The translations under genes were made by a program, and so were the position numbers. From contig CAZLEX010000003.1 in assembly GCA_964558655.1 (NCBI GenBank), positions 4,975-68,974 on the forward strand: a stretch of 64,000 nucleotides of DNA, in the 5' to 3' direction. Below are positions 33,412 through 49,128 of this stretch, piece by piece; within the stretch, counting starts at the first letter, position 1; every line of letters starts with the position of its first letter. A model generated the notes under the pieces. That model did no database searches. It was not told the DNA's origin and saw nothing but the letters and a program-made list of their open reading frames with translations. This DNA is from an uncultured Oscillospiraceae bacterium. Lineage in GTDB: Bacteria > Bacillota > Clostridia > Oscillospirales > SIG627.

Positions 33412-34235
33412 AAGATATTACTTTAGGGCAGTTTTTTCCGGGAAACTCAATTCTCCATAAAACAGATCCGCGAATAAAGCTTGTCTTAACCGTGCTGTTT
33501 ATAGTATCGGTATTTTCGGCGAAAAATATTTTTTCTTTCGCACTGCTCATTGCGGGCATCGCGGTTTTGATACTGCTGTCCGGAATATCCGTGAAAGTTA
33601 TTCTGAGAGGCATACGCCCCGTCCTGTTTTTAATGCTGTTTACGGCAATTGTGAATTTGTTTTGGACAAAGGGTGAGGGAGATCCGCTCATATCTTTCGG
33701 ATTTATCAAAATCTGGGAAATAGGAATAGTGAATGCGGCGTTTATGGTAGTTCGCATAGTTTCGCTCATAGCGGGTACTTCGCTCCTTTTGACTTATACC
33801 ACATCTCCCATAGCACTTACCGACGCTCTTGAGAGAATTTTGAAACCTCTCGGATATCTTCATGTTCCCGTTCACGATTTCGCAATGATGATGACGATAG
33901 CCCTTCGGTTTATCCCCACTCTTCTGGAGGAGACCGACAAGATTATAAATGCACAGAAGGCAAGAGGAGCGGGCTTCGATAAAGGAAACCTCATTGACAA
34001 AGTCAAAGCTTTTGTGCCTATACTCATACCGCTTTTTATTTCGGCATTCAGGCGTGCCGACGATTTGGCATGTGCTATGGAATGTCGCTGTTACAGAGGC
34101 GGAGAGGGCAGAACGAGAATGAAAGTTTTGCATATACGCTTTTCCGATATTCTGATTTGCACGGTGTTTGTTCTGTTTGCCGCCGCACTGTTCTTCCTGA
34201 ATACTTTCGATACTTCGATAACACTTTTGAGGTGA
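33405..34235 (+). CDS. ecfT: ECF transporter transmembrane subunit T
   Basis: 276 aa, polytopic, with DPRIKL near the N-terminus and an ARG-type coupling helix (QKARGAGF). Overlaps the ecfA2 stop. Confidence 0.85.
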   Translation: MLKDITLGQFFPGNSILHKTDPRIKLVLTVLFIVSVFSAKNIFSFALLIAGIAVLILLSGISVKVILRGIRPVLFLMLFTAIVNLFWTKGEGDPLISFGFIKIWEIGIVNAAFMVVRIVSLIAGTSLLLTYTTSPIALTDALERILKPLGYLHVPVHDFAMMMTIALRFIPTLLEETDKIINAQKARGAGFDKGNLIDKVKAFVPILIPLFISAFRRADDLACAMECRCYRGGEGRTRMKVLHIRFSDILICTVFVLFAAALFFLNTFDTSITLLR

Positions 34236-34237
34236 GC

Positions 34238-34969
34238 ATGAAATATAAGCTTACGGTTGCATACGACGGTTCTTTCTTTTCGGGGTGGCAGGTACAGAAA
34301 AACGCCGTTACCGTACAGGGAGAGATGACACGCTGTGTCCGGCGTATTTTCGGAGACGGTGCGAGCGTTACCGGTTCAAGCCGAACCGACAGCGGAGTTC
34401 ACGCTCTCGGGTTTGTGTGTCATATAACGGCTGAAGGTAGTACGCTTTCCCCGCAAAATACGGCACAGGCTCTGAATTCTCTGCTTCCGCCGCATATTTT
34501 CGTCATTTCCTGCGAGGAGGCTGACGAGAATTTTCATGCAAGATACAGTGCCGTTTCCAAAGAATACAGATACTTGATTTGCGACGGCGGAATACGGGAT
34601 CCGTTTCTGTATAACAGGGCATGGTTTTATCCCCGTCGTCTCGACGAAGAAAAGATGAACGAGGCGTCAAAGGATTTTTTGGGGACTTTTGACTTTAGGT
34701 CGTTTATGGCACAGGGGTCGAAAGTTACCGACACGCACCGAACGGTGTATTCGGCTCAGGTGATACGCCGTGACGGAAAGATTGAGTTTTCCGTTTGCGC
34801 AAACGGATTTCTTTACAACATGGTAAGAATAATGACGGGGACGCTGGTAGATATAAGCTGCGGAAAAATAAACGAATCCGTTCGTGATATCATTGCCTGC
34901 AAATCCCGATCCCACGCGGGTATTACGGCTCCTGCTCAGGGGTTGTATCTTTACCGTGTAAATTATTGA
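34238..34969 (+). CDS. truA: tRNA pseudouridine(38-40) synthase
   Basis: MKYKLTVAYDGSFFSGWQVQ, catalytic SSRTDSGVHA, and FLYNMVRIM. Confidence 0.9.
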   Translation: MKYKLTVAYDGSFFSGWQVQKNAVTVQGEMTRCVRRIFGDGASVTGSSRTDSGVHALGFVCHITAEGSTLSPQNTAQALNSLLPPHIFVISCEEADENFHARYSAVSKEYRYLICDGGIRDPFLYNRAWFYPRRLDEEKMNEASKDFLGTFDFRSFMAQGSKVTDTHRTVYSAQVIRRDGKIEFSVCANGFLYNMVRIMTGTLVDISCGKINESVRDIIACKSRSHAGITAPAQGLYLYRVNY

Positions 34970-34983
34970 AAACAGGAGGCTTT

Positions 34984-36183
34984 ATGGAAAAAAAAGAAGA
35001 AAAAGAAGAAAAAGTTTTTTCTCCGAACGCTTTTGACCGTAAAGCGTCTTTAATAAAAAAAATAAAATATGCCGTAGCTTTGTTGCTTGTTTTTGATTTT
35101 CTGTTTTTCTTTTTGGGTTATCGCAATGACATAACCGTCGAAAATATTCGCTATCTTTTAAAATATGTGAATATTTCTCCGTCCGTAATCGGTTCGGAAA
35201 ATGCCCGTGTAATCCCGATTGAAAGCACTGACGGAGTGCAAACGGCAATTTTTCGGCAGGAACTCGTCGTCGTTACCAAAAATAAGGTTACGACATATGA
35301 CATGAACGCCAAAGAAGGCTTTTCGGATACGGTTTCCCTGTCATCTCCGGCAATTTCCACCGGCAAAAATTTCTTTGCGGTATATGACAGAGGAGATAAT
35401 TACTTTGCTCTGTACAATTCGTTTTCAAAGATATACGAAGAGGTAACTCCCTATCCCGTCTGGGATATAATAATTTCCGACAGCGGAGAATACTCCGTTA
35501 TAACCGCCGAGAAGGGATACCGCAGTGCTCTTCGGGTATATAACACAAATTTTGAAAATAAAATGAACTATCTTACCTCCGACAAGTATATAATATGTTC
35601 CGATACGCACAGCGGTAAAGATGTTTTTTATATTGTCGGGTGTCTGAAAAACAGTGAGGACGGGGATTTTCTCTCTTCCGCCGTTATCTTGAAAGACGGA
35701 TCTGAAGATGTTTATCTGACGGTGGAATTTCCGTCGGAAATGATACTTAACGCTAAATTCTTCGACAACGGAAACATGTGCGTCCTTACGGATAAATCGG
35801 TGAGGGTACTCGATTTGGCGGGCGGAGAACTTTCAAAAACTTCTTTTTCTTCGGACAGTCTGAAAATGTTTGATGCGGGTACGGATTACTGTGTGCTTAT
35901 ACTCAACGAAAATTCAATCGGCACAAAGCACAGAATGATAATTATTGACGATCGCGGGAATACTTTGACGGATACAGTTATCGATTCTTCGGTGGACGAT
36001 ATTTCAGCCGGAGACAGAGAGGTGCTTATTTTGGGTTCTTCATCCATTATATCTTTTAAACTTGACGATAATACTTTAACGGAACATTCTGCCGATAAGG
36101 GATATACAAAAGTCTTATCGCTCAAAAAGTCCGAAGCGATTTTGATTTACGACGATAACGCTTACATTGTAAGTACGAAATAA
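34984..36183 (+). CDS. Membrane-anchored protein of unknown function (DUF5711-like)
   Basis: ATG follows AGGAGG. Lys/Glu-rich N-terminus, one TM (AVALLLVFDFLFFFLGY), then a repetitive beta-rich ectodomain. Confidence 0.5.
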   Translation: MEKKEEKEEKVFSPNAFDRKASLIKKIKYAVALLLVFDFLFFFLGYRNDITVENIRYLLKYVNISPSVIGSENARVIPIESTDGVQTAIFRQELVVVTKNKVTTYDMNAKEGFSDTVSLSSPAISTGKNFFAVYDRGDNYFALYNSFSKIYEEVTPYPVWDIIISDSGEYSVITAEKGYRSALRVYNTNFENKMNYLTSDKYIICSDTHSGKDVFYIVGCLKNSEDGDFLSSAVILKDGSEDVYLTVEFPSEMILNAKFFDNGNMCVLTDKSVRVLDLAGGELSKTSFSSDSLKMFDAGTDYCVLILNENSIGTKHRMIIIDDRGNTLTDTVIDSSVDDISAGDREVLILGSSSIISFKLDDNTLTEHSADKGYTKVLSLKKSEAILIYDDNAYIVSTK

Positions 36184-36193
36184 CGGAGGTAAT

Positions 36194-36898
36194 ATGACGC
36201 TTTTTATTGATTTAATTCTTATAGGTGTTTTTGTCGGATTTACAGTGGCGGGATACAGAAAAGGATTTGTGAAAATGCTCATATCCTGCTTTAAAAACCT
36301 GGCGGCTTTTCTCATTGCATTTTTTACCGCTCCGAAATTGGGAGAGATAATTGCGAAGATGTCTTTCATGGACAATGTGAGAGTTACCGTTGCCGAAAAA
36401 CTTACGACGCTTTTGGGAACCGACAGTGCGACGGCCGAAGATGTCAAAAGAATTATAAATTCCGAACAGAACGCATTTGCCGAATTTGCCGAAAGAATGG
36501 GCGTTGACACAAACGCCGTGAGTAAGGTTGCCGAAAATGCCGTGGGGAATGTAAACGAAGCGGTGGGAGAATATATTGCCGAGCCGTGTGTTTCGGTTCT
36601 CTCCTGCGTGATTGCGTTCGTGATTGTATTCGTCGTTTCGGTTTTGGCGATAAAACTTGTCGGTGTTGTGCTATCTCTCATTGTCAAGCTCCCCGTTCTT
36701 CACGCTTCAAACAAGATACTCGGTATTGTGACCGGTGCTCTGCTCGGACTTTTCTGGGTGTTTATTATTACGGCTGTCATAAGGACGGCGTCACCGTTTT
36801 TCGCAGACAATATTATGGTTGCGACACTTGAGAGCACAGGAAGCCTTTACAGCAGGATAGCTTCTTTTTCTCCCGATTTTCTTTCAAAGCTTTTGTAA
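36194..36898 (+). CDS. CvpA-family membrane protein
   Basis: N-terminus LFIDLILIGVFVGFTVAGYRKGFVK is typical of CvpA. Four or five TM segments. Confidence 0.6.
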   Translation: MTLFIDLILIGVFVGFTVAGYRKGFVKMLISCFKNLAAFLIAFFTAPKLGEIIAKMSFMDNVRVTVAEKLTTLLGTDSATAEDVKRIINSEQNAFAEFAERMGVDTNAVSKVAENAVGNVNEAVGEYIAEPCVSVLSCVIAFVIVFVVSVLAIKLVGVVLSLIVKLPVLHASNKILGIVTGALLGLFWVFIITAVIRTASPFFADNIMVATLESTGSLYSRIASFSPDFLSKLL

Positions 36899-36934
36899 AA
36901 AAAATATTAAAATCATTTTAATTACGGAGATAGT

Positions 36935-37492
36935 ATGATAAAATTCAAAAAAAGCGATATTCCGAATTACATCTCGGTTTTCAGACTGTGTCTTATACCG
37001 GTGTTTCTGTATTTTTATTTTGAGCAGAGAAATACGGCACGGGCGGCGTGCGTGTTTCTGCTTGCCGGTATGAGCGATGTCCTGGACGGTTATCTTGCCA
37101 GAAGAAATCAATGGGTGTCGAACATGGGACGGATTCTCGATCCTGTTGCCGACAAGTGTATGCAGTCGACGGTTTTGATATCCCTGTCGGTTGACAGAAT
37201 CGTGCCGTGGGCAATCAGTGCGGTTTTGATAGGGAAGGAATTGCTTATGGTTCTCGGAGCCACCAGGCTTATAAAAAAATTCAATACATATGCACAGTCC
37301 GGCTGGTACGGAAAGGGTGCGGTAGTGCTTTTTTATGCGGTGGTTGTGTCTTTAATGCTTTTTGATATGGGAAAAGCCGTAAAGATTATTCTTTCCTGCC
37401 TTTTGATTTTCGCAATGTTTTTCGCTCTTACGATGTATTATCTGAAAACATACAGATCGAAAAGCACAGACGGCAGGACGGTAAAAGATTAA
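36935..37492 (+). CDS. pgsA: CDP-diacylglycerol--glycerol-3-phosphate 3-phosphatidyltransferase
   Basis: CDP-alcohol transferase motif DVLDGYLARRNQWVSNMGRILDPVADK; 185 aa, polytopic. Confidence 0.85.
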   Translation: MIKFKKSDIPNYISVFRLCLIPVFLYFYFEQRNTARAACVFLLAGMSDVLDGYLARRNQWVSNMGRILDPVADKCMQSTVLISLSVDRIVPWAISAVLIGKELLMVLGATRLIKKFNTYAQSGWYGKGAVVLFYAVVVSLMLFDMGKAVKIILSCLLIFAMFFALTMYYLKTYRSKSTDGRTVKD

Positions 37493-37537
37493 AACGGCAA
37501 ACAATAAAAAATAACAGTTAAAAGGAAAAGGTATAAT

Positions 37538-39820
37538 ATGTTTCAATTATGTTCACGCTGCAAGACGCGTCCTGCGGTGGTCTTTATTACAAAAGTGGAA
37601 AACAACGAATCGAAACCGATGGGCTTGTGCCTCCAGTGTGCACGGGAGCTCAAGGTCGGTCCGATCGATCAGATAATCAAGCAAACGGGCTTGAGCGACG
37701 AAGAGCTTGACGCCATGATGCAGGGTATGGAAAATTTGGTAAGCGAAATGGGAGACGAAGGACTTGACGCTCTCGTTCCCACCGATGACGGCCCCGACGC
37801 CACCGGAGCTCCCGCAATGGATCTCAGTCATCTTTTTTCAAATTCCGAGAACGATGCCGGTAAAGCAAAGACAAAGCAGGAGCGGGAAAACGGCAAAAAA
37901 GAGAAAAAATTTCTCTCGCAGTTTTGTATAGATGTTACCTCAAGAGCAAGAGAGGGAAAACTTGACAGAATTGTCGGAAGGGAAAAGGAACTCGAAAGGG
38001 TAATTCAAATTCTCTGCCGCAGACAAAAGAACAACCCCTGTCTCATAGGTGAACCGGGTGTCGGAAAAACCGCACTTGCCGAAGCACTTGCCCAAAGAAT
38101 CGCCGACGGAAAGGTTCCGTTTAAACTTTTGGGCAAAGAAGTATTTCTGCTTGATATGACCACTCTCGTTGCCGGAACTCAGTTCAGGGGACAGTTTGAA
38201 AACCGAATGAGAGGTCTTATAGAAGAGGTAAAGAAGTTAGGAAATATTATCCTCGTTATAGACGAAGTACACACGATAGTCGGAGCGGGAGACGCCGAAG
38301 GCGGAATGAACGCCGCCAATATTCTCAAACCCGCACTCTCACGCGGTGAAATACAGATAATAGGTGCGACGACACTTTCGGAATACCGTAAGTATATCGA
38401 AAAAGATGCCGCACTTGAACGCCGTTTTCAGCCTGTAATGGTAAACGAACCTTCCGTTGCCGATACTGTGCTCGTTCTTCGCGGAATAAAGAAGTATTAC
38501 GAAGATTTTCACTCACTGAGCGTGCCGGACAGAATACTCGAAAAAACCGTTATTCTCTCCGAAAGATACATTACCGACAGATTTCTGCCGGATAAGGCAA
38601 TTGACTTGCTTGACGAAGCCTGTGCGAGAAAAGCACTTGAAAGCCCCGTTATAAACCGTTTGGGTGAGCTTGAGCAAAGCCTTTCCAAACTTAAGGAACA
38701 GAGAGAGGCACTTGAAGCCCTTCCCGATCCGACAGAGGAAGTTTATTCCAAAATTGCCGATGTCAAAGTCCGAGAGATAAAGGAAAACAACGAAAAGGAC
38801 GCATTAAACGCCGAACGCGAAAAAATAGAAATTACCGAAGAGGATCTTGCACGGGTAATTGAGGTGTGGACGGGAATACCTGCGGGGAATATAGCCGAAA
38901 ACGATTACAGAAAGCTCGAAACTCTTCAGGATAAGCTTAAAGAAAAAATTATAGGACAGGACAGAGCCGTCGAAGCGGTTACCCGTGCCATAAAACGCTC
39001 CCGTGTCGGAATTTCCTACAAACGACGTCCGGTTTCGTTTATATTCGCCGGTCCTACGGGAGTGGGCAAAACAGAGCTTGTAAAAACTCTCGCATCGATA
39101 CTTTTCGACTCTCCCGAGTCTCTTATTCGTCTCGATATGTCGGAATTCATGGAGAAGCACTCCGTTTCCAGAATCATCGGTTCGCCTCCCGGATATGTCG
39201 GTTACGACGACGCAGGACAGCTTACCGAAAAGATAAGAAGAAAGCCCTATTCGGTCGTACTGTTCGACGAAATAGAAAAGGCTCATCCCGATGTCATGAA
39301 TATACTTCTTCAGATTTTGGACGACGGTATAATAAGCGATGCACACGGTAAGCAGGTTAATTTTGAAAATACCGTTTTGGTTATGACGACAAACGCCGGT
39401 GCGAGCGTCGGTACGAACACTACGGGATTTTTAGCTTCTTCTCACATTATCGATTCCGAGAAAACCGAAAAAGCTCTTTCACGCTTCCTGCGTCCCGAAT
39501 TTTTAAACAGGGTTGACGAAATAATCACATTCAACCGTCTTGGACATGAGGAAATAAAGAAAATCACTTCTTTGAGACTTTCGGAACTTGCCAAAGTCCT
39601 TTTCGCAAAGGGAATTGTTCTGTCATATGACGATAAGGCAGTTGAGTATATCGCCGAAAAGTCGTTCTCGGAGAAATACGGAGCGAGAAATGTCGCAAGA
39701 TATATACAAACGGAGATTGAAGATAAAATTGCCGAGTCGATTATAAAATCATACGAAAAGGGTATATCCAAAGTCAATGTTTCATCTGACGGCGGTGTTA
39801 TAAAGGTTGAGTGCGAATAA
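37538..39820 (+). CDS. ClpC/ClpA-type double AAA+ ATPase with N-terminal CxxC...CxxC zinc-ribbon instead of Clp_N repeats
   Basis: D1 has GEPGVGKTA and LVIDEVH; D2 has GPTGVGKTE and VLFDEIEKAH. The N-terminus is CSRC-x22-CLQC. Confidence 0.85.
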   Translation: MFQLCSRCKTRPAVVFITKVENNESKPMGLCLQCARELKVGPIDQIIKQTGLSDEELDAMMQGMENLVSEMGDEGLDALVPTDDGPDATGAPAMDLSHLFSNSENDAGKAKTKQERENGKKEKKFLSQFCIDVTSRAREGKLDRIVGREKELERVIQILCRRQKNNPCLIGEPGVGKTALAEALAQRIADGKVPFKLLGKEVFLLDMTTLVAGTQFRGQFENRMRGLIEEVKKLGNIILVIDEVHTIVGAGDAEGGMNAANILKPALSRGEIQIIGATTLSEYRKYIEKDAALERRFQPVMVNEPSVADTVLVLRGIKKYYEDFHSLSVPDRILEKTVILSERYITDRFLPDKAIDLLDEACARKALESPVINRLGELEQSLSKLKEQREALEALPDPTEEVYSKIADVKVREIKENNEKDALNAEREKIEITEEDLARVIEVWTGIPAGNIAENDYRKLETLQDKLKEKIIGQDRAVEAVTRAIKRSRVGISYKRRPVSFIFAGPTGVGKTELVKTLASILFDSPESLIRLDMSEFMEKHSVSRIIGSPPGYVGYDDAGQLTEKIRRKPYSVVLFDEIEKAHPDVMNILLQILDDGIISDAHGKQVNFENTVLVMTTNAGASVGTNTTGFLASSHIIDSEKTEKALSRFLRPEFLNRVDEIITFNRLGHEEIKKITSLRLSELAKVLFAKGIVLSYDDKAVEYIAEKSFSEKYGARNVARYIQTEIEDKIAESIIKSYEKGISKVNVSSDGGVIKVECE

Positions 39821-42436
39821 ATGAACCTGCTTGAAATCAATGCACAGCGTCTTTTTGAGATTTTACGCACATCTGCCGAAAAAGGACTTGACGAGCGTCA
39901 GGTAAAAATCAACCGGAGGGAATTCGGTGCCGACGCTCTGCGTAAAAATCCGCCGGGACGCTCTTTCGGAAGGACCGTTTTCGGCAACATAATGCTGATA
40001 CTCTTTTTCCTGCTGTCTCTTTTTTCTTTCGATGTGAAAAAAGATGCCTCGTCCGGAATTTGCGTAATTCTGATACTGTGTTTCTATTTTGCTTTTCAGG
40101 GAATTGCATCACGGGCTGTTGCGGCAACGGAAAAGAAAATACATTCGTACAGACTTTCTTCCTGTACTGTAATACGGGAAGGAATAAGGCAAAAGGCGGA
40201 TTATTCCGATCTTGTTCCCGGAGATATCATAGTTCTTTCTCAGGGAGATGTTTTGCCCTGCGACGCTCTTGTACTCAGGCAAAAAACGCTCAGAGTCATT
40301 GAGGCACAGCTTACGGGGAATGTTTCGCCTGTCGTAAAACTTACGCAGGAAGATGTGCTTTCGACAAAAGGGTGTCCCTATTACGAATGTATACTTTTTG
40401 CGGGTTCGGTAGTACATTGCGGAGAGGCTCTGGCACTTGTCTGCAATGTGGGAGACAATGTTTTTGACAGAAAAAATAAGTTTGTCTGCCGAATAATGCC
40501 GGGCGGTCGTCCCGAAATTTACGAAAAGGCAATGAAAATCGCCGACAGCGTTTCGACTGTCTGGATAATTCTCTGCATTATCACTGTCATTACGGGAATA
40601 CTGAAAGGAGCACAGCTCTTTTCGCTTTTCCATATTGCGACGGCACTGTCGGTTGCGGTGCTGCCCGATTTGATAGTCACACTTTCCGAGCTTAATCTCG
40701 CTCTGTCTACCCTGCGTCTTTACAAAAAGGGAGCGGTCGTCAAAAATCTTTGTGCCGTTGACCGTATGTGCGATATAAACTGTATTGCGGTGGATTCCGG
40801 GAAATATTTCCGAAGCGAAAATCCCCGTCCTCATACGGTTATCGTCGGGGACAGGAAGAAAAAATTCAAAAATGCGTCCGAGCCCGATGTAAGAGAGCTG
40901 TTTAAGCTTGCCTGTATCGCCTGCGTCGGAAACGAAAACGGTGAGGGAATGTATTATAACGACATAAGCGTCGAGGAATCGCTGCTTAAAACGGCGGCGA
41001 GGCTCGGTATGCCTCAGTCGGCTTTGTACGAAGAATACCTGCTTCTCGAAAAAATGCCGTTTACCGTTGAAAACGGCATGAGCCGTGTTATAGTTTTTCG
41101 TGACGGCGAATTTTATCTCGTCTCTTTAGGACTTCCCGAATGTATTTTGAGAGTTTGTTCCTCCTGCCGTTCGTCCGGAACCGAAAAGAATTTTTTTGAA
41201 AAAGACAAGCGTGTTTTGCTTGAAGATTCAAAACTTATCGCGGCAGATAACGAGGGCATTGCCGGAGTTGCGATAAAACGCATTTCTTATCGTGAGGGAG
41301 CGGGACAGATAAATAATGCGAGAGGTTCGGTTTTTATGGGATTTATAGGACTGCACACGGCGATAACCGCCGACTCTGCGGGAGCTGTAAATCTTTGCCA
41401 AAAATCCGGAATAGATATACTTTTGATGACGAACGAATCTCGCACGACAGCGGTCGGATTTGCCGACAGCCTTGCAATTATGAAAAACGGTGACGAGGCT
41501 GTTGACGGTGCCGAATTTGAGAGAATTGATGAGGGACTGTTTAGAGCTGATATAAAAAAATACAAAGTGTTCCTGTCCTTCGATCCCGAAAAAAAGGCAA
41601 AAATAGTCAAGTACAGGAAAGAAGAGGGGGATATAGTGGCATCGGCCGTCTCATCTCTTTACGATATACCTTTACAGGCAGAGTCCGATATAGCTTTTTG
41701 TACCGGCAATGTCAGGGATAACAATGTTGCGAGAAATTCCGATGTAATACTTACAAAAGGCTTTGCGGGCGTTACCGACTGCATAAAGTACGCAAGATGC
41801 GTGTACAGAAATATACGGCATATGCTTGAGTTTTTTATGCTTACACAGTTTACATCTGCGTCCTGTGCCTTTATGTTTCTGATATTTTTGCCCGAAATAC
41901 TGCTTTTGCCCATACAGATAATTCTGTATTCGCTTCTGGCGTTTTTTCCGTCGGCACTTGTTATCTCCACCGAGAAAGTACGCGGAACCGAAATGAAAGC
42001 TTCGTTCGGTGAAGAAAATGTCAATATCAATTTTCAAAATATTATAACTCTTCCCTTAATTTGCGGACTGGTTTCCGGACTTACGGCAACACTGTCTGCC
42101 AGAATTATGTATGACGGGGGTGCCTCCCTTGCGCAATGTCGCGGAATTGCCTATTTTACGCTCTGCGTTACGGCACTTTTCATGGCGGCGGCGGTGTCGG
42201 GAGATTTTCGGCTGTCTTCGGGAATTTTCAAGAATAAAAATCTGTTTGCCGTCTCTTTGCCGGCAACACTGATTTCTTTGCTTCTTCTGATTACTCCGAA
42301 AATATCGGATTTTTTGGGAATGAGCATAACAAGCGTTAAAACAGTCTTTATATCCGTTTTGATAAGCCTTATTCCGTGTGTGCTTGCGTTCGGATTAAAG
42401 CTTGTAAAAAAATATGTTTTCAATAATATTAAATAA
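39821..42436 (+). CDS. P-type ATPase homologue with all catalytic motifs degenerate (pseudo-ATPase)
   Basis: Colinear with P2-type cation ATPases (GLDERQV..., LVPGDIIVLSQGDVLPCDA, 8-10 TM). However TGES is TGNV, DKTGT is DSGKY, KGAPE is LGLPE, TGD is TNE, and GDGVNDAP is VSSLYDIP. Confidence 0.75.
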   Translation: MNLLEINAQRLFEILRTSAEKGLDERQVKINRREFGADALRKNPPGRSFGRTVFGNIMLILFFLLSLFSFDVKKDASSGICVILILCFYFAFQGIASRAVAATEKKIHSYRLSSCTVIREGIRQKADYSDLVPGDIIVLSQGDVLPCDALVLRQKTLRVIEAQLTGNVSPVVKLTQEDVLSTKGCPYYECILFAGSVVHCGEALALVCNVGDNVFDRKNKFVCRIMPGGRPEIYEKAMKIADSVSTVWIILCIITVITGILKGAQLFSLFHIATALSVAVLPDLIVTLSELNLALSTLRLYKKGAVVKNLCAVDRMCDINCIAVDSGKYFRSENPRPHTVIVGDRKKKFKNASEPDVRELFKLACIACVGNENGEGMYYNDISVEESLLKTAARLGMPQSALYEEYLLLEKMPFTVENGMSRVIVFRDGEFYLVSLGLPECILRVCSSCRSSGTEKNFFEKDKRVLLEDSKLIAADNEGIAGVAIKRISYREGAGQINNARGSVFMGFIGLHTAITADSAGAVNLCQKSGIDILLMTNESRTTAVGFADSLAIMKNGDEAVDGAEFERIDEGLFRADIKKYKVFLSFDPEKKAKIVKYRKEEGDIVASAVSSLYDIPLQAESDIAFCTGNVRDNNVARNSDVILTKGFAGVTDCIKYARCVYRNIRHMLEFFMLTQFTSASCAFMFLIFLPEILLLPIQIILYSLLAFFPSALVISTEKVRGTEMKASFGEENVNINFQNIITLPLICGLVSGLTATLSARIMYDGGASLAQCRGIAYFTLCVTALFMAAAVSGDFRLSSGIFKNKNLFAVSLPATLISLLLLITPKISDFLGMSITSVKTVFISVLISLIPCVLAFGLKLVKKYVFNNIK

Positions 42437-42451
42437 AAAGGAGAAATAAAA

Positions 42452-42661
42452 ATGGAAAAAGTAACACGCGAAACAATAATCGGAGATATCCTTGATTACG
42501 ACAGCGAAACGGGAGTGTTTTTCCTGGAAATAGGTATGCACTGTCTGGGCTGTCCTTCGGCAAGAGGAGAAAGCATTGAGGATGCCTGTGCGGTTCACGG
42601 AACAGATGCCGATGAACTCGTGGAGAAGATTAATAAATATTTGGCAGAGAAAAATGCCTGA
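42452..42661 (+). CDS. DUF1858 redox-disulfide domain protein
   Basis: 69 aa with a GMHCLGCPSA CxxC motif, typical of hybrid-cluster-protein-associated small proteins. Confidence 0.7.
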   Translation: MEKVTRETIIGDILDYDSETGVFFLEIGMHCLGCPSARGESIEDACAVHGTDADELVEKINKYLAEKNA

Positions 42662-43373
42662 AACAAAACTTTCGAGGCGGCTTCATGCCGCCTTCTTGCT
42701 TGTAAAAGGCGGAGGTATTCTTGCCGACATCGGAACCGACCACGCACTTTTGCCTATCGCACTTGTCAAATCGGGAAAGGCCAGACGGGCTTTTGCCTGC
42801 GATATTAACCCGAAACCGCTTGAAAAAGCCGCCGAAAACATAAAGAGGGAAAGACTCGAAGATAAAATCTCCACACTTCTTGCCGACGGTGCCGAAGGAT
42901 TGGAAGGAATTGCCGACGAATTTGTAATTGCGGGAATGGGCGGAGAACTAATTGCCGAAATTATCGGGAAAGCCCCGTTTTTAAAGAAAAAAGAAATTCA
43001 TCTTGTGCTTCAGCCTATGACGAAAAAAGAAGTGCTCAGAGCTTTTCTTTGGGATAACGGATACGCAATCGGCGAAGAAAAACATATTGAAGATGCAGGA
43101 CACTGTTATACTTTGCTGTCCGTTCGCTATGTCGGAGAAAAAATCTCTTATACAGATATCGAAACATATATAGGGAAAAGCGATGTCATAAATTCTTTGG
43201 ACTGTGACGGCGTTAGGGTGCTTGTTAAAGAGAACGAAAAAATTATGCAGGACACCGTCAACAGAATAAAAGGCAGGGAAAGCTCTGCAATGTCCGTTGA
43301 AAGCGAAAAGCTTTTTTTGTCCGAGCTTAAAAGAATTACAGATACGCTGAAAGGAAATATTAATGAAACTTAA
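42654..43373 (+). CDS. trmK: tRNA (adenine22-N1)-methyltransferase
   Basis: LSRRLHAAFLLV...ILADIGTDHALLPIALV is colinear with B. subtilis YqfN. Followed by NIF3 as in Bacillus. Confidence 0.8.
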   Translation: MPETKLSRRLHAAFLLVKGGGILADIGTDHALLPIALVKSGKARRAFACDINPKPLEKAAENIKRERLEDKISTLLADGAEGLEGIADEFVIAGMGGELIAEIIGKAPFLKKKEIHLVLQPMTKKEVLRAFLWDNGYAIGEEKHIEDAGHCYTLLSVRYVGEKISYTDIETYIGKSDVINSLDCDGVRVLVKENEKIMQDTVNRIKGRESSAMSVESEKLFLSELKRITDTLKGNINET

Positions 43374-44130
43374 CGATATAATACTGAATTTGGAACAGCT
43401 TTTGCCGAAATCACTGAGCGAAGAATGGGACAATGACGGAGTGATGTTTTGCCTTGACCGCAATGCACAGATAAGCAAGACGGTTCTCACGCTCGATGTA
43501 ACATGTGAATGTATCGAATTCGCACAGAAAAGCAGAGCTGAGCTTATAATAAGTCATCACCCGTTCATTTTCAAACCTCTTTGCAGCATTGACGAGTCTT
43601 TGAAAGCCGAAATGATAGAGATGCTTGTGCATCGGAAAATATCCGTCCTGTCATACCATACTCGTTTCGATAACATAAAAGGCGGTATGAACGACGCACT
43701 TGCTAAGGCTTTGGGACTTGAAAATATAAGCGAGTTTGAACAAATGGGCAGGATCGGCGAGCTGTCTTTTGAATTTTCTCCCGAAGAGTTCGCCGCCTAT
43801 GTCTGCGAATGTTTGGATACCGATACGGTTCTTTACAGTGCAGGCAAAAAAATAAAAAAAGTTTCCGTACTCGGAGGAGGCGGAAAGGACTTTGTTCTTC
43901 CCGCACGCCTTGCCGGAGCCGACGCCATTGTTACGGGGGATATGTCGCACGGAGTTGTCATGAGTGAGGTTCCGTCGGGAATTACGGTTGTCGATGCGGG
44001 ACATTACGGCACGGAAAAAATATTCACCGAAGCTTTTTTGCCTTTTCTCGAAAGTGCGGGAGTTGCTTCGGAGAGCGTCTTGAAATATCAGGGCAAAAAT
44101 CCCGGAGTTTTTGTTTGTAAGGAGAAATAA
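43363..44130 (+). CDS. Nif3-family dinuclear metal-centre protein
   Basis: DNDGVMF, ELIISHHPFIF and YHTRFD motifs. Confidence 0.8.
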   Translation: MKLNDIILNLEQLLPKSLSEEWDNDGVMFCLDRNAQISKTVLTLDVTCECIEFAQKSRAELIISHHPFIFKPLCSIDESLKAEMIEMLVHRKISVLSYHTRFDNIKGGMNDALAKALGLENISEFEQMGRIGELSFEFSPEEFAAYVCECLDTDTVLYSAGKKIKKVSVLGGGGKDFVLPARLAGADAIVTGDMSHGVVMSEVPSGITVVDAGHYGTEKIFTEAFLPFLESAGVASESVLKYQGKNPGVFVCKEK

Positions 44131-45897
44131 ATGGCTTTTGATGCGGGTATGCTTTGTGCCGTTGTGAGAGAGCTGAATACGGTTCTCGGCAAGGATAATA
44201 TGCAAAACGGAAGCAAAGTCGAAAAAATATATATGCCGGAAAAAGACGAAATACACCTGGTACTTCGCACATACAGCGCAAGTTACAGGCTTGTCCTGTC
44301 GGCAAGTCCGAATAATGCGAGAATTTTGATTAGCGAGAGTTCAAAGGAAAATCCCCCCACGCCTCCGTCGCTTTGTATGCTTTTGAGAAAAAAACTGTCG
44401 GGTGCGGTAATTTCAAAAATTTCGCAGTCGGGCTTTGAACGCGTCTGCACAATAGAGTTTGACACCAAAGACGAGATGGGCTTTTCTTCCAAAAAATATC
44501 TTGTCTGCGAAATAATGGGAAAATATTCCAATATAGTTTTTTGCGACGATAAAATGAAAATTTTAGGTGCGGTAAGGACGGTAGACGCAACATCTTCCCT
44601 TACACGCAGGATAATTCCCGGTACGCAGTATGCCTTGCCTCCGTCACAAAATAAGCTAAATCCGACAACTGTCACTCAAGACGAGTTTTACAAAAAACTT
44701 GAAAGTTTTGAACCCTCCTTTATCTCCGATAAAGCGATAACTCTTTCTTTTTGCGGGATAGCTCCACTTATTTCAGCGGAAATTTGTTACCGTGCCTCAG
44801 GAGATGTGTCCGTTACACTCGGGAAAATTCAGCCTTCGAGACTGTGGGAAGAATTTTCAAAATATATCGCTTTTTTGAAAAACGGAGAGTTTTCCCCTTG
44901 CCTGCTCTTTGAAAACGGAAAAGACACGGCGTTTGAGTATTCGGTTTATCCGATATTGCACTACGAAGATAAAATCAAAACGCTTGAAACCGAGAGCGTT
45001 TCGCAGATGATAGAGCGTTTCTTTTCGCTCCGTGACAGAAACGACCGCCAAAGGCAGAAATCTCACGATATTTTTAAAGTTTTGACAAATGCCAAAAACC
45101 GCCTGATAAAGAAAACGGAAGTGCAGACGCAGGAACTTTCCGACTGTGAAGATATGGAAGAATGTCGTGCCTTTGCCGACCTCATTATTCAGGAAATGTA
45201 CCGCATAAAGAGAGGCGATTTGAGCGTGGAAGCCGTCGATTATTCCTCCGAACCGTATAAAACGGTGAAAATACCGCTTGACAGCCGTCTTTCTCCCTCA
45301 CAGAACGCACAGAGGTATTACAAAAAGTACAACCGTAAGAAAAATGCGAAAAAAATACTCACCTCTCAGATAGAACAGTCAAAAAAAGAAATTGAGTATA
45401 TAGATACCGTGTTTGATGCTCTTTCCCGTGCCGAAAAGGAAAAAGAGCTTTCGGAAATCCGCGAAGAACTTTCTTTGTGGGGATATATAAAAAGGGACGC
45501 CAAAAAGCTCCGTTCTTCCGACAAGAAAAAAGATTTTAAGCCCGCCGTTTTTCTCTCTCCGTCGGGATATGAAATTTATGTGGGAAAAAACAATTTGCAA
45601 AATGACTATATCACCACGAAACTTTCCGAAAAAAACGATTGGTGGTTCCATGTCAAAAATCAGCCCGGAAGTCATGTTCTTATGAAAGTCGGGACAAAAG
45701 AAGAGCCTCCCGCAGAGGATTTTACCTTTGCCTGTACTCTTGCGGCAAAGAATTCCTCCGTGCAGGGAGACAATACAGCCGTCGATTATACTATGATAAA
45801 ATATGTGAAAAAGCCCTTAGGTTCAAAACCCGGTTTTGTCACATATACGACGCACTGGACTGCATTCGTGTCCCCGAAAGACAACATTATCGTATAA
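44131..45897 (+). CDS. rqcH: Ribosome quality control protein RqcH (NFACT/FbpA family)
   Basis: N-terminus MAFDAGMLCAVVRELN..., PPSLCMLLRKKLSG, and a C-terminal NFACT-R region WWFHVKNQPGSHVLM. Confidence 0.85.
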   Translation: MAFDAGMLCAVVRELNTVLGKDNMQNGSKVEKIYMPEKDEIHLVLRTYSASYRLVLSASPNNARILISESSKENPPTPPSLCMLLRKKLSGAVISKISQSGFERVCTIEFDTKDEMGFSSKKYLVCEIMGKYSNIVFCDDKMKILGAVRTVDATSSLTRRIIPGTQYALPPSQNKLNPTTVTQDEFYKKLESFEPSFISDKAITLSFCGIAPLISAEICYRASGDVSVTLGKIQPSRLWEEFSKYIAFLKNGEFSPCLLFENGKDTAFEYSVYPILHYEDKIKTLETESVSQMIERFFSLRDRNDRQRQKSHDIFKVLTNAKNRLIKKTEVQTQELSDCEDMEECRAFADLIIQEMYRIKRGDLSVEAVDYSSEPYKTVKIPLDSRLSPSQNAQRYYKKYNRKKNAKKILTSQIEQSKKEIEYIDTVFDALSRAEKEKELSEIREELSLWGYIKRDAKKLRSSDKKKDFKPAVFLSPSGYEIYVGKNNLQNDYITTKLSEKNDWWFHVKNQPGSHVLMKVGTKEEPPAEDFTFACTLAAKNSSVQGDNTAVDYTMIKYVKKPLGSKPGFVTYTTHWTAFVSPKDNIIV

Positions 45898-45909
45898 GGA
45901 GTTTTAAAT

Positions 45910-48900
45910 ATGAGTTTTGAAAAGTATACGAAGTTTTTTGACGGAGAACCCGACGGAAAAACCGTTCGTGTAAAAGGCAGTGCCGAATTTTCTTTTTCCG
46001 CCGTACCGCAGGAAAATACGGCTTACAGGCTTTTCACGGTAGGGGAAAGTGAACAGTATTACATGTATAAGGACGAACCCGACGGGCCTCTCCTTTACCG
46101 TTCGCTTTCCGACAGTTTGAATACCGAACACGCCGTACACGATGCTTTCTGCCTTGATTTCTCCTCACGCAGAAGCGAAGATTTTATAAGGCGTACTTAT
46201 AAGAAAGTCATGTGGCCGCCGGTACTCTCTTATCTTATGATGAATCCCGTTCCGACGCTTTGGAAAACCGGCATCACCGTTTCGGGAGAGAATGTTACGG
46301 TGGAAGATGACGGATTTTTGCAGATGCGTGTGGATATACGGCTGAAAAAAGAAAATGTCAATCCTCACAGTACCGCCGGCAAACCCGATTACAGTATCGT
46401 TATTCCTTTTCCATGCGGTACATATTCTCCCGTCCGTCTTGAAAAAGAAATAGATATCCCGCAAAATACTTCTCATGTCGGAGTTTTTGTCGAAGGTAAA
46501 AAATATACGGGAAAAGTTTGGTGTGAAATGCCGTTTTTGACCGGAGACTCTCAAAATTTGCTCCCGCCGTTTGCTCCGCATGACGAAACCGGTGAGAAGT
46601 TTATGTGGACTTCGCAGTATTTGAGTCGTCGCGAATGGCCGGAATTTCGCGTTAAACTTAACGGCGAGACGGTTTTTTCGGGAGAAGTTTTCGAGCGGTC
46701 TCACCGTCATTCCGAGTGGGAGATTCCTCTGCCGGCACAACTCATAAAAGAAAATAACGCTCTTTCTTACGAACTTATTTCGGATTACCGGGAGCCTTTG
46801 CCTTACACATTTTACGAAATAGGACTTATCGAACAGCCCTCTGCCGATATTTCTCTTATTTCCGTACAGCAGATTTCTCATGCGGGCGGTAAATTACGCG
46901 TGCTGATAAAGACAATGTATGAGAACATGAGGGTTACTCTTTCGGAATGTGACAGTGCTCTTTCGGGAGAAAGTGAGTATTTCTTTGAGGAAAGAGGACT
47001 TCACGGAATTTTGCTTGACTGCCTTTATCCCGCACTGTCTCAGAAGTTTACTTTGAGTACGGAGAGTACGACTGTTTCGGGAGTGGCTGAAAGAATAGCC
47101 GTGAAGAATGAGGACGGAGTGATTACCGGATCCGGAGATATGATTTACATATGTGCCGACGATGACAGCATGGAAGAGTATCTGTCATGGTATGTTTCAA
47201 ACGGCGTGGGGGATCTGGTAACTATTCGTCCCGCTTATCGCTGGTCGGGCACGAGGTGCCTTAACAAGCCTCTATGGAGACGCCTTTGCAAGCTTATGGA
47301 TGAGCTTGACATGAAGTGGGTGATGATTGCCGACGGAAGAGAACTTCAGGGAATTTCCGCACAGCCTTCCGATGAGGATATGGCAGGACGGGGATATCTC
47401 GGCAGACAGGACCACGAATGTGACGGAGCCGAATTTTACTGGGGACAGAAAAAGGCAGATTCATTCTATACTGAACAGTGGCTTGATATGGCACATTTTG
47501 CATGGCAGGAAGACCGTGAGCATGTGCGGGGTGCTTTTTCCGAAAGTGAGTACATTTACAAAGGTAATGATATATATTACCGCTCCGACCGCGACCGTCC
47601 GAAAGACAATGCTCTTTGCCGAAGTGCAGTAGTCGGACATATTGACGCCGCAAAAAGTTCGGGAGCAAAGCGTCATACCGGCCCCGCCTCCGTTTTCAAG
47701 TATATGTACGAAGCGGGTTATACATGGCTCGGAGCCGAAACAATGTATTCCACAATGGAATTGACTTTGGGCTTTTTACGCGGTTTTGCCAAAGATAAAT
47801 CAATGACCTCGTGGGGCGTTCATCACGCTTTGCAGTGGTCCTCAACTCCCAATGACGCACCGGAACATTTCAGAAGATTTAAGCTTGCACTTTATGCTTC
47901 CTATATTCTCGGAGCAACCGATATAAATACCGAAGAGGGATTTTGGCATATTGAAGAGGGATACGAACATTATCACCGTTTTTCTCACGCCTGCAGGGAA
48001 CATCTTGCCTGTCAGCAGGAGTTCTTCCGATATGTTTGCTCACACACGAGAAGCGGAGAGTTTTACACACCTTTTGCGTTGATTTCCGGGCGTGATGACG
48101 GTATTGATATGAGTGCGATAGGTAAAAACTGGGGCATGGAGGGAGAGAAAACGCCTGCCGAAAGAAGCTGGGAACTTGTCAAAGCTCTTTATCCTCAGTC
48201 AAAGCCCGCAACTCTCATGACTTATCATAATTGCCCAACGGACCGTGCAGTCGGTTTTCATACCTCAACTCCCTACGGCTCATGTGACATGATTCCCGCC
48301 GAGAGCAGAACGGAAACCGTGCAGTCTTATCGGTCGCTGATTTTTATGGGATATAACCGAATGACAGACAGCGATGAGCGTAAATTCTTCCGTTGCATGA
48401 AAAACGGAGCGTCTGTGCTCATGACTCGTGCACATCTTACAAAAACATCGGATTTTGCCACGATAAAACAGGGTAATCTCGAATTTGACAACAGCTGTCT
48501 TTCTTTTACCGAAGGCGATCCCGTTTTCGTTTCGGACACCTTTAACGGCAACTCCGTTTTTGTGTGTGACAATCCTTTGCCTGCCGACGAAGTTTTGCTT
48601 TATACCGATTCTCACAGGCCTCTTTTGTGTCGCTACCGCGTCGGAAAAGGCGAGCTTTATCTCTTTTCCGTCAGGGAATATCCCTCTTGCCCGGCTATTT
48701 CCGAATATTATGAGGAGATGATGATTCGCCTTGCGGAAAAGGCGGGAGAAGAGGAAGATGTTTGGGCAAAAACCGGAGAAGATACCGAGTTTGCCGTATA
48801 TGTTCAGCCCGACGGAACCCGTCATGTGTATTTTCTCGCTGTCGATTGGTGGCAGGACAGTGAAAAATTGCGGACTGCGTATTTGAAAATAGGTGATGAC

Positions 48901-49128
48901 GGATACCGTGTACAAATGCCTTTCGGCACCCTTGTGAAGTGCGTTTGCAATGAAAGCTGTGCCGTTTGGACTGCCGACGGTGAGGGCGAAGTTCTCTCTG
49001 TTTCCAAAAAATGCGTTCGGGTGCAGGGGAACGGTACTGTCGTGTTTACTGTCGCACAAAACGGCAGTCAGAAAGATATTGAGGTCGATTTTTCTTCTTC
49101 GCCCGTTAAAGAGTTCGGCTTAAACTAA
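45910..49128 (+). CDS. Large cytoplasmic protein of unknown function (1072 aa)
   Basis: Long clean ORF 12 nt after rqcH. No signal peptide, TM or nucleotide-binding motif, and no family recognised by eye. Confidence 0.7.
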   Translation: MSFEKYTKFFDGEPDGKTVRVKGSAEFSFSAVPQENTAYRLFTVGESEQYYMYKDEPDGPLLYRSLSDSLNTEHAVHDAFCLDFSSRRSEDFIRRTYKKVMWPPVLSYLMMNPVPTLWKTGITVSGENVTVEDDGFLQMRVDIRLKKENVNPHSTAGKPDYSIVIPFPCGTYSPVRLEKEIDIPQNTSHVGVFVEGKKYTGKVWCEMPFLTGDSQNLLPPFAPHDETGEKFMWTSQYLSRREWPEFRVKLNGETVFSGEVFERSHRHSEWEIPLPAQLIKENNALSYELISDYREPLPYTFYEIGLIEQPSADISLISVQQISHAGGKLRVLIKTMYENMRVTLSECDSALSGESEYFFEERGLHGILLDCLYPALSQKFTLSTESTTVSGVAERIAVKNEDGVITGSGDMIYICADDDSMEEYLSWYVSNGVGDLVTIRPAYRWSGTRCLNKPLWRRLCKLMDELDMKWVMIADGRELQGISAQPSDEDMAGRGYLGRQDHECDGAEFYWGQKKADSFYTEQWLDMAHFAWQEDREHVRGAFSESEYIYKGNDIYYRSDRDRPKDNALCRSAVVGHIDAAKSSGAKRHTGPASVFKYMYEAGYTWLGAETMYSTMELTLGFLRGFAKDKSMTSWGVHHALQWSSTPNDAPEHFRRFKLALYASYILGATDINTEEGFWHIEEGYEHYHRFSHACREHLACQQEFFRYVCSHTRSGEFYTPFALISGRDDGIDMSAIGKNWGMEGEKTPAERSWELVKALYPQSKPATLMTYHNCPTDRAVGFHTSTPYGSCDMIPAESRTETVQSYRSLIFMGYNRMTDSDERKFFRCMKNGASVLMTRAHLTKTSDFATIKQGNLEFDNSCLSFTEGDPVFVSDTFNGNSVFVCDNPLPADEVLLYTDSHRPLLCRYRVGKGELYLFSVREYPSCPAISEYYEEMMIRLAEKAGEEEDVWAKTGEDTEFAVYVQPDGTRHVYFLAVDWWQDSEKLRTAYLKIGDDGYRVQMPFGTLVKCVCNESCAVWTADGEGEVLSVSKKCVRVQGNGTVVFTVAQNGSQKDIEVDFSSSPVKEFGLN

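Follow-up and report, generated by a model that had tools for sequence, protein, structure and literature searches.

P-type ATPases are defined by an aspartyl-phosphate cycle. The P2A Ca2+-ATPases, including PMR1/SPCA, LMCA1 of Listeria and YloB of B. subtilis, are the closest described systems to a gene that we found in a 64,000-nucleotide stretch of DNA from an uncultured Oscillospiraceae bacterium (contig CAZLEX010000003.1, positions 4,975 to 68,974; hereafter, the window). The 871-residue product of this gene (39821..42436, forward strand) is colinear with these pumps, shares their domain order and matches them in predicted structure, but it lacks their phosphorylation, dephosphorylation and nucleotide motifs, their Ca2+ ligands and their match to the HAD hydrolase domain. 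We consider it very probable, on the alignments detailed below, that the gene encodes a conserved pseudo-enzyme, here termed a pseudo-pump, descended from a PMR1/LMCA1/YloB-like P2A Ca2+-ATPase.

A search of the full-text literature for catalytically dead P-type ATPases of bacteria returned no description. Conserved bacterial members of the family without the aspartyl-phosphate cycle appear essentially undescribed, and the sole comparable case we found is TMEM94/ERMA. This eukaryotic P-type-ATPase-like protein of the endoplasmic reticulum has a disputed status as an ATPase (against, PMC12134183; in favor, PMC13322241). Like the pseudo-pump, it combines a P-type ATPase-like fold with questioned membership in the catalytic family. 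Unlike the pseudo-pump, it is eukaryotic, and the likeness drawn here is one of fold and questioned catalytic membership. Moreover, the dispute over TMEM94 concerns whether the protein is active, whereas entire clades of the pseudo-pump family have exchanged the nucleophile itself for another residue.

Both genes that flank the pseudo-pump gene also have described counterparts. The upstream product shares a zinc ribbon and two AAA+ modules with ClpE, the zinc-finger Hsp100/Clp protein of Bacillus, Lactococcus and Streptococcus, but differs from it in having TGF at the ClpP loop and in that no CtsR operator was found near its gene. We know of no membrane partner or P-type ATPase neighbor described for ClpE, and a literature search for membrane adaptors or partners of ClpE found none. 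The downstream product shares a CxxC motif and a hidden Markov model match with the DUF1858/TIGR03980 family (C. thermocellum A3DK08, PDB 2k53). That family takes its name from an association with the hybrid cluster protein, whereas the gene type seen in the window is tied to the dead pump instead; a literature search on DUF1858 function returned nothing relevant.

Fold and replaced motifs of the pump-like protein

The open reading frame (ORF) of the pseudo-pump is open throughout, and its product retains a full P2A pump fold in which catalytic and ion-site residues are replaced. Two Pfam families, E1-E2_ATPase (8e-24) and Cation_ATPase_C (3.5e-9), passed their cut-offs, and Cation_ATPase and Cation_ATPase_N gave weak matches. 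No Pfam match to the HAD hydrolase domain (PF00702, PF08282) was obtained in this protein, whereas canonical pump homologues carry PF00702. The top NCBIfam model was that of PMR1-type Ca-ATPases, TIGR01522, which aligned colinearly over residues 8-853 at 196.6 bits, far below its cut-off of 798.3. All specific pump models failed and only the generic TIGR01494 passed (73.7 bits versus 62.3), which explains why databases use names like "cation-transporting P-type ATPase"; across the family, members are named in this way or as "hypothetical protein". The nearest solved relative is Listeria LMCA1 (6zhf, 1.8e-41, residues 18-813), and human SPCA1 also scored at about 1e-41.

An AlphaFold2 model built from an alignment of 37 family members reached a mean predicted local distance difference test (pLDDT) of 85.2 and a predicted template modeling score (pTM) of 0.79, with ten transmembrane helices. 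Foldseek matched it to structures of SPCA1, LMCA1, SERCA and Na,K-ATPase (1e-43 to 1e-38). Pfam, the alignments, the model and Foldseek together recovered the P2A domain order: an N-terminal segment, the actuator (A) domain, M1-M4, the phosphorylation (P), nucleotide-binding (N) and again P domains, and M5-M10. The pump fold is, as modeled, intact. These data bear out the sequence-only reading of this DNA, which had described the protein as colinear with P2 pumps and bearing about ten transmembrane helices.

We placed the motif columns by MAFFT and HMMER alignments against canonical pumps, naming residues by their canonical equivalents. On the forward strand, TGES is replaced by TGNV (residues 165-168, 40313..40324), with loss of the Glu183 equivalent; the family has TGN[TSVA] here, or TGRR in one clade (clade 3). 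DKTGTLT has become DSGKYFR (residues 325-331, 40793..40813), retaining the Asp and losing Lys-Thr-Gly-Thr. LGLPE stands for KGAPE (residues 436-440, 41126..41140), with loss of the nucleotide-binding Lys515 equivalent; in the family this site reads [LI]GxP or RGNPN. Elsewhere in the N domain, the Phe487 equivalent is retained (PF) and the Arg560 column is unconserved. HTAIT occupies the DPPR columns (DPPR to TAIT at residues 513-516, 41354..41368), and LMTNES replaces MITGDH (TGD to TNE at residues 537-539, 41423..41440), keeping the Thr and exchanging Gly-Asp for Asn-Glu. The hinge VFLSFDPEKKAKIV (41567..41608) retains the Lys684 equivalent as the second K of PEKK. VSSLYDIP replaces GDGVNDAP (residues 610-617, 41648..41671), with D703 changed to Ser and the D707 equivalent kept.

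The membrane cation site is similarly altered. In M4, PEGLP reads PDLIV (residues 282-286, 40664..40678); its Pro is invariant, and an Asp occupies the E309 position in most members of the two groups of dead pumps defined below as types A and B. In M5 (LTQFT) and M6 (LYSLLAFFPS; together 41840..41953), the Ca2+ ligands are replaced. The full set of changes is E309 to D, N768 to Q, E771 to S, N796 to S, T799 to A and D800 to F; the Gln at the N768 position is conserved across the family (Q676, nearly invariant), and in the family Phe, Ile or Cys stands at the D800 position.

The sequence-only reading had held that every catalytic motif was replaced, and had conceded that its motifs might be misplaced. 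Its motif columns stood as placed: HMMER and MAFFT agree, there is no DKTGT equivalent elsewhere in the protein, and neither DKTG, GDGxND nor DPxR occurs at any other position. The claim was too sweeping at the level of single residues, since D325 (the DKTGT Asp), T537 (T625), the second K of PEKK (K684) and D615 (D707) survive; E183, T353, D703 and K515 have no equivalent left. Judged from the aligned residues, the protein lacks aspartyl-phosphate chemistry, having lost DPPR, the Glu of TGES, the Lys of KGAPE, the residues KTGT that follow the Asp and the leading Asp of GDGVND. By the same alignments, it lacks the carboxylate and amide Ca2+ ligands of M4, M5 and M6.

A family of degenerate pumps under selection

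The degeneracy is not a peculiarity of this copy. A homology search recovered proteins (P0001-P0059) from 98% down to 25% identity without PF00702 and without DKTG; ordinary pumps, with all motifs present, start at about 24% identity. The group around the window protein, type A, comprises three clades, each with its own conserved replacement motifs. At the TGES column, clades 1 and 2 have TGN[TSA] and clade 3 has TGRR; at the DKTGTLT column, clades 1 and 2 have D[SN][SG][KR]YFR and clade 3 has NS[SG][DE]YLF. The phospho-Asp position is therefore Asn in clade 3 (His in a few members), and in the more divergent type B it is Gly, Ser, Glu, Asn or Asp. With Asn at the nucleophile in a whole clade, the function shared by the family cannot require phosphorylation. 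Across clades, the two columns may also have exchanged charge, TGN[ST] with D-S-S-[KR] in clades 1 and 2 against TGRR with N-S-S-[DE] in clade 3. The swap apparently reflects one evolutionary event, and only weakly hints at a locked contact between the A and P domains.

Scanning one genome per GTDB species, we found degenerate copies in 26 metagenome-assembled genomes (MAGs), all assigned to Clostridia, Eubacteriales or Oscillospiraceae of the gut or rumen; canonical pumps made up the remaining 54 loci that the scan returned. The ORF is uninterrupted in all 26 genome loci (L022 ends at a contig edge), and type A ORFs span 852 to about 890 residues across the 26 species. The ratio of nonsynonymous to synonymous substitution rates (dN/dS) was 0.05 in the two most closely related pairs, whose dS is 0.8-0.9, and 0.07-0.10 in pairs further apart, and an independent assembly holds a 98%-identical copy of the window protein. 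The pseudo-pump is thus under strong purifying selection. Intact ORFs, low dN/dS and conserved replacement motifs uphold the sequence-only reading in its view of a repurposed pseudo-enzyme rather than decay, and the survey of orthologues shows the same degeneracy family-wide.

Constraint is unevenly distributed along the protein. Conservation peaks in the first five residues, MNLLE (39821..39835), in the A domain and in parts of the P domain, and drops furthest in M1-2, M7-10 and the N domain, a pattern that in the alignment is the opposite of that expected for an ion pathway. The A domain, with its strand LVPGDIIVLSQGDVLPCDA (40211..40267), and the N-terminus are better conserved in the family than any other part of the protein. 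MNLLE is invariant in type A, including the 25%-identical P0059 and two loci (L012 and L013) in which the pump gene is not linked to a clp gene. Conserved motifs specific to the family are MNLLE, PYYECILFAGS, VCNxG, DRMCDINC and D-S-S-[KR]-Y-F-R.

Type B (L082, L085-L089; P0247-P0257, P0268, P0312, P0338, P0344) consists of more divergent dead pumps from other uncultured Clostridia, with the replacement motifs xKNxAFP, D[SE]EW and AERxEEL and with KGAPE kept. An exhaustive profile search yielded 11 type A clusters at 50% identity followed by a continuum, and at least 25 further fully degenerate clusters lay among its best 150. In a neighbor-joining tree, bootstrap support was 100/100 for type A, 100/100 for type B, 65/100 for the two together and 100/100 for all degenerate groups; the tree is crude and prone to long-branch attraction, which may partly account for the all-degenerate clade. 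For a common origin of types A and B, the genomic slot that they share is a better argument than this tree. Further degenerate groups, some full and some partial, were also seen (P0269, P0378, P0383 and P0384; P0292 and P0330; P0290, P0294, P0298 and P0306), the partly degenerate ones keeping DKTGT and TGD and losing ion-site residues and GDGVND.

Linkage to a ClpE-like gene and a DUF1858 gene

The gene immediately upstream (37538..39820, +) encodes a 760-residue double-ring AAA+ unfoldase with two Walker A/B pairs (Walker A at 171 and 505, Walker B at 238 and 573). An N-terminal zinc ribbon, C5-x2-C8...C31-x2-C34, replaces the Clp_N repeats, and at the ClpP-loop position (residues 629-631, 39422..39430) the protein has TGF, not [LIV]-G-[FL]. 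Its nearest structures are ClpC and ClpE (6em8, 2.7e-199; 29hb, 7e-184), and by its sequence features it is ClpE-like in architecture. We considered a CtsR operator upstream of this gene and rejected it: the sole match carries two mismatches, lies inside the pump ORF and is at chance level.

Of the 24 type A loci whose upstream DNA is available, 22 have the clp gene directly before the pump gene, and two distant members, P0059 (L081) and P0072 (L082), are located in the same Clp-pump gene block. When six ClpE-like orthologues (61-64% identity) were picked regardless of their neighbors, each was followed by a degenerate pump gene (856-960 residues, no HAD domain), five of the six being type B. 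A Clp gene upstream of a canonical pump was seen in 0 of 54 loci, and two of the nearest canonical pumps, checked separately, lie in unrelated contexts. The sequence-only reading had treated conservation of the gene pair as decisive for its proposal, and the pair proved conserved. In the two exceptional loci (L012 and L013; 9523..12916), a lipocalin-like gene precedes the pump, and the ClpE-like gene (P0196) lies elsewhere on the 300-kb contig of L012; both loci retain the pump-DUF1858-TrmK order.

The downstream neighbor had gone unremarked in the sequence-only reading. This 69-residue DUF1858/TIGR03980 gene ("hybrid cluster protein-associated redox disulfide"; 42452..42661, +) begins 15 nt past the pump stop, with an AAGGAG Shine-Dalgarno sequence ahead, and its end overlaps the start of trmK by 8 nt. 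Its product carries the CxxC motif GMHCLGCP, scores 83.9 bits against TIGR03980 (cut-off 44.95) and matches PDB 2k53 at 5.7e-23. Each of the 33 degenerate loci examined (25 type A loci with downstream DNA, L081, L082 and L085-L090) has a DUF1858 gene 3' of its dead pump, and just one of the 54 canonical pump loci has one within 10 kb. DUF1858 is therefore a more constant neighbor of the pump than the clp gene, and the order ClpE-like unfoldase, pseudo-pump, DUF1858 CxxC protein is a fixed cassette that a large clade of uncultured Clostridia shares.

This cassette is embedded in a longer array. Genes in the window run in the order TruA, DUF5711, CvpA, PgsA-like, Clp ATPase, pseudo-pump, DUF1858, TrmK, NIF3, RqcH and a 1072-residue ORF (45910..49128, +), which directly follows rqcH and has no Pfam or NCBIfam match. 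Spacers from truA to this ORF (34070..49128) range from -11 to +45 nt, among them TruA/DUF5711 at -4, DUF1858/TrmK at -8, TrmK/NIF3 at -11 and NIF3/RqcH at 0 (44130|44131), distances that suggest a single long operon. We considered a terminator after DUF1858 as a possible operon end and rejected it: the hairpin (42674..42694, +; 8 bp, 6 GC) falls inside the trmK coding start. No other terminator-like hairpin in the region is as strong, and this one could represent an attenuator or chance. No further pump gene was found within the window.

At the junction of the clp and pump genes, the two abut without a spacer (TAA at 39818-39820, ATG from 39821; TAAATG at 39818..39823, +), as the sequence-only reading had stated; in orthologous loci, the clp stop lies anywhere from 8 nt before the pump ATG to a 4-nt overlap. 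The two ORFs are in frame in the window, but a conserved readthrough fusion of Clp and pump was rejected on the orthologue offsets (+1, +4, -1, -2, -4, -5 and -8). The sequence-only reading had also taken the joint as a sign of co-translation and possibly of physical partnership, and the partnership found no support in this form, although its idea of a membrane dock for the unfoldase may yet be correct: spacers in the operon are generally zero or negative, so that the joint is not special; the surrounding block EcfA-EcfA'-EcfT-TruA-DUF5711-CvpA-PgsA-Clp-pump-DUF1858 is syntenic; and L012 and L013 split the pair. On the 3' side of DUF1858 the lineages differ, with TrmK-NIF3-RqcH in some and MscL-BcrAD-ThrRS in others (type B pumps are followed by DUF1858-MscL), whereas the Clp-pump-DUF1858 core persists down to about 24% pump identity. 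Taken together, the gene order speaks moderately for a functional cassette and not at all for a physical complex.

The wider context also bears on ancestry. In one locus (L084, 5887..16301), a canonical Ca2+ pump gene adjoins rqcH and yicC-remA-gmk-rpoZ-coaBC, a context that resembles the yloA(rqcH)-yloB(Ca2+-ATPase) region of B. subtilis. In the window, rqcH is the fourth gene after the dead pump. Because rqcH stands near both pumps, a YloB-type ancestor of the dead pump is plausible.

Proposed role of the pseudo-pump and alternative readings

We propose that the pseudo-pump no longer pumps and would serve as a non-catalytic, membrane-embedded component. Its working surface would be the constrained cytoplasmic headpiece formed by MNLLE, the A domain and the core of the P domain, and its likeliest partners would be the products of the flanking genes. 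In the version that we prefer, it holds or regulates the ClpE-like unfoldase, acting with ClpP, at the membrane, with the DUF1858 protein possibly exerting thiol or redox control. That the ClpE-like protein, the DUF1858 protein or both are partners of the pseudo-pump is a tentative suggestion, which we would give somewhat less than even chances; taken as a whole, the reading of a pseudo-enzyme with a ClpE or DUF1858 partner appears to us evenly poised.

Several observations weigh against this proposal. The surviving D325, T537, K684 equivalent and D615 may permit residual phosphate or nucleotide binding, and the conserved Asp at the E309 position together with the Gln at the N768 position may form a residual ligand site in the membrane core. 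Since the entire ecfA-to-DUF1858 block keeps its gene order, and spacers of zero or less are common in it, the adjacency and coupling of the clp and pump genes could be inherited rather than functional. In L012 and L013, both genes are retained though separated, and constraint is not visibly relaxed. A contact between the proteins is proposed from their gene context. Finally, looking up the clusters and searching for type B homologues turned up MAGs and no cultured carriers.

Among the alternatives, the one that survives best is that the pseudo-pump has a role of its own, for example as a structural membrane protein, as a sensor of membrane state or as a partner of DUF1858 only, and that the clp gene adjoins it by inheritance. 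We regard this as possible though rather doubtful. It draws on the conservation of the ecfA-to-DUF1858 order as a block, on the tight or overlapping junctions that are general in the operon, and on the two loci with a split pair, which nevertheless keep pump-DUF1858-TrmK and MNLLE and show dN comparable to that of other pairs. It is harder to square with a linkage that persists to 24% pump identity while the region 3' of DUF1858 changes, and that, of the roughly 32 loci whose upstream DNA is available, just 2 have broken.

A second alternative is that the protein is another kind of transporter or a channel, offering a passive or differently energized path through the M4 Asp and the M5 Gln, along which protons, a cation or some lipid-like substrate might move. 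In its favor are the invariant M4 Pro, the Asp that most members of types A and B keep where E309 would be, the nearly invariant Q676 and the retention of all ten transmembrane helices. We nonetheless consider it improbable: conservation is weakest in M1-2 and M7-10, the residues at the D800, N796 and E771 positions are small or hydrophobic and differ from clade to clade, and the energy-coupling chemistry is gone.

It is less probable still that the protein, at least in clades 1 and 2, is a phosphoenzyme-forming ATPase with unorthodox motifs. The window protein does keep the nucleophile Asp and the T625, K684 and D707 equivalents, but Ser or Gly stands where the Mg-binding D703 would be, neither DPPR nor the T353 equivalent survives, the Glu of TGES and the Lys of KGAPE are missing, and no HAD hydrolase domain is matched; clade 3 orthologues in the same cassette, moreover, carry Asn at the nucleophile. 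A decaying pseudogene or an assembly artefact is the only rival to be refuted outright, by the selection and conservation data: a dN/dS of 0.05, ORFs of 852 to about 890 residues in 26 species, a 98%-identical copy in independent data and a confidently predicted fold.

Returning to the pseudo-pump as a membrane-embedded component with partners encoded alongside it, the cassette can be imagined as a three-part machine. The pump headpiece, through its A domain and N-terminus, would recruit the zinc-ribbon ClpE-like unfoldase, together with ClpP, to the membrane for the extraction or degradation of membrane proteins, and DUF1858 would act as a redox gate. We put this forward as a speculative and unlikely scheme. 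If true, it would be an FtsH-like or P5A-dislocase-like system assembled from a pump fossil and a soluble AAA+ motor.

For a P-type ATPase specialist the finding would be surprising; its documentation at the level of sequence is good, and the function is inferred. It corrects the annotation of transporters in genomes of uncultured Clostridia, and it supplies concrete candidate partners, the ClpE-like unfoldase and DUF1858. Beyond the single gene, the abundant uncultured Clostridia of the gut and rumen harbor a whole radiation of dead pumps, spanning type A, type B and further groups, which amounts to a natural experiment on the uses to which the pump fold may be put without pumping.

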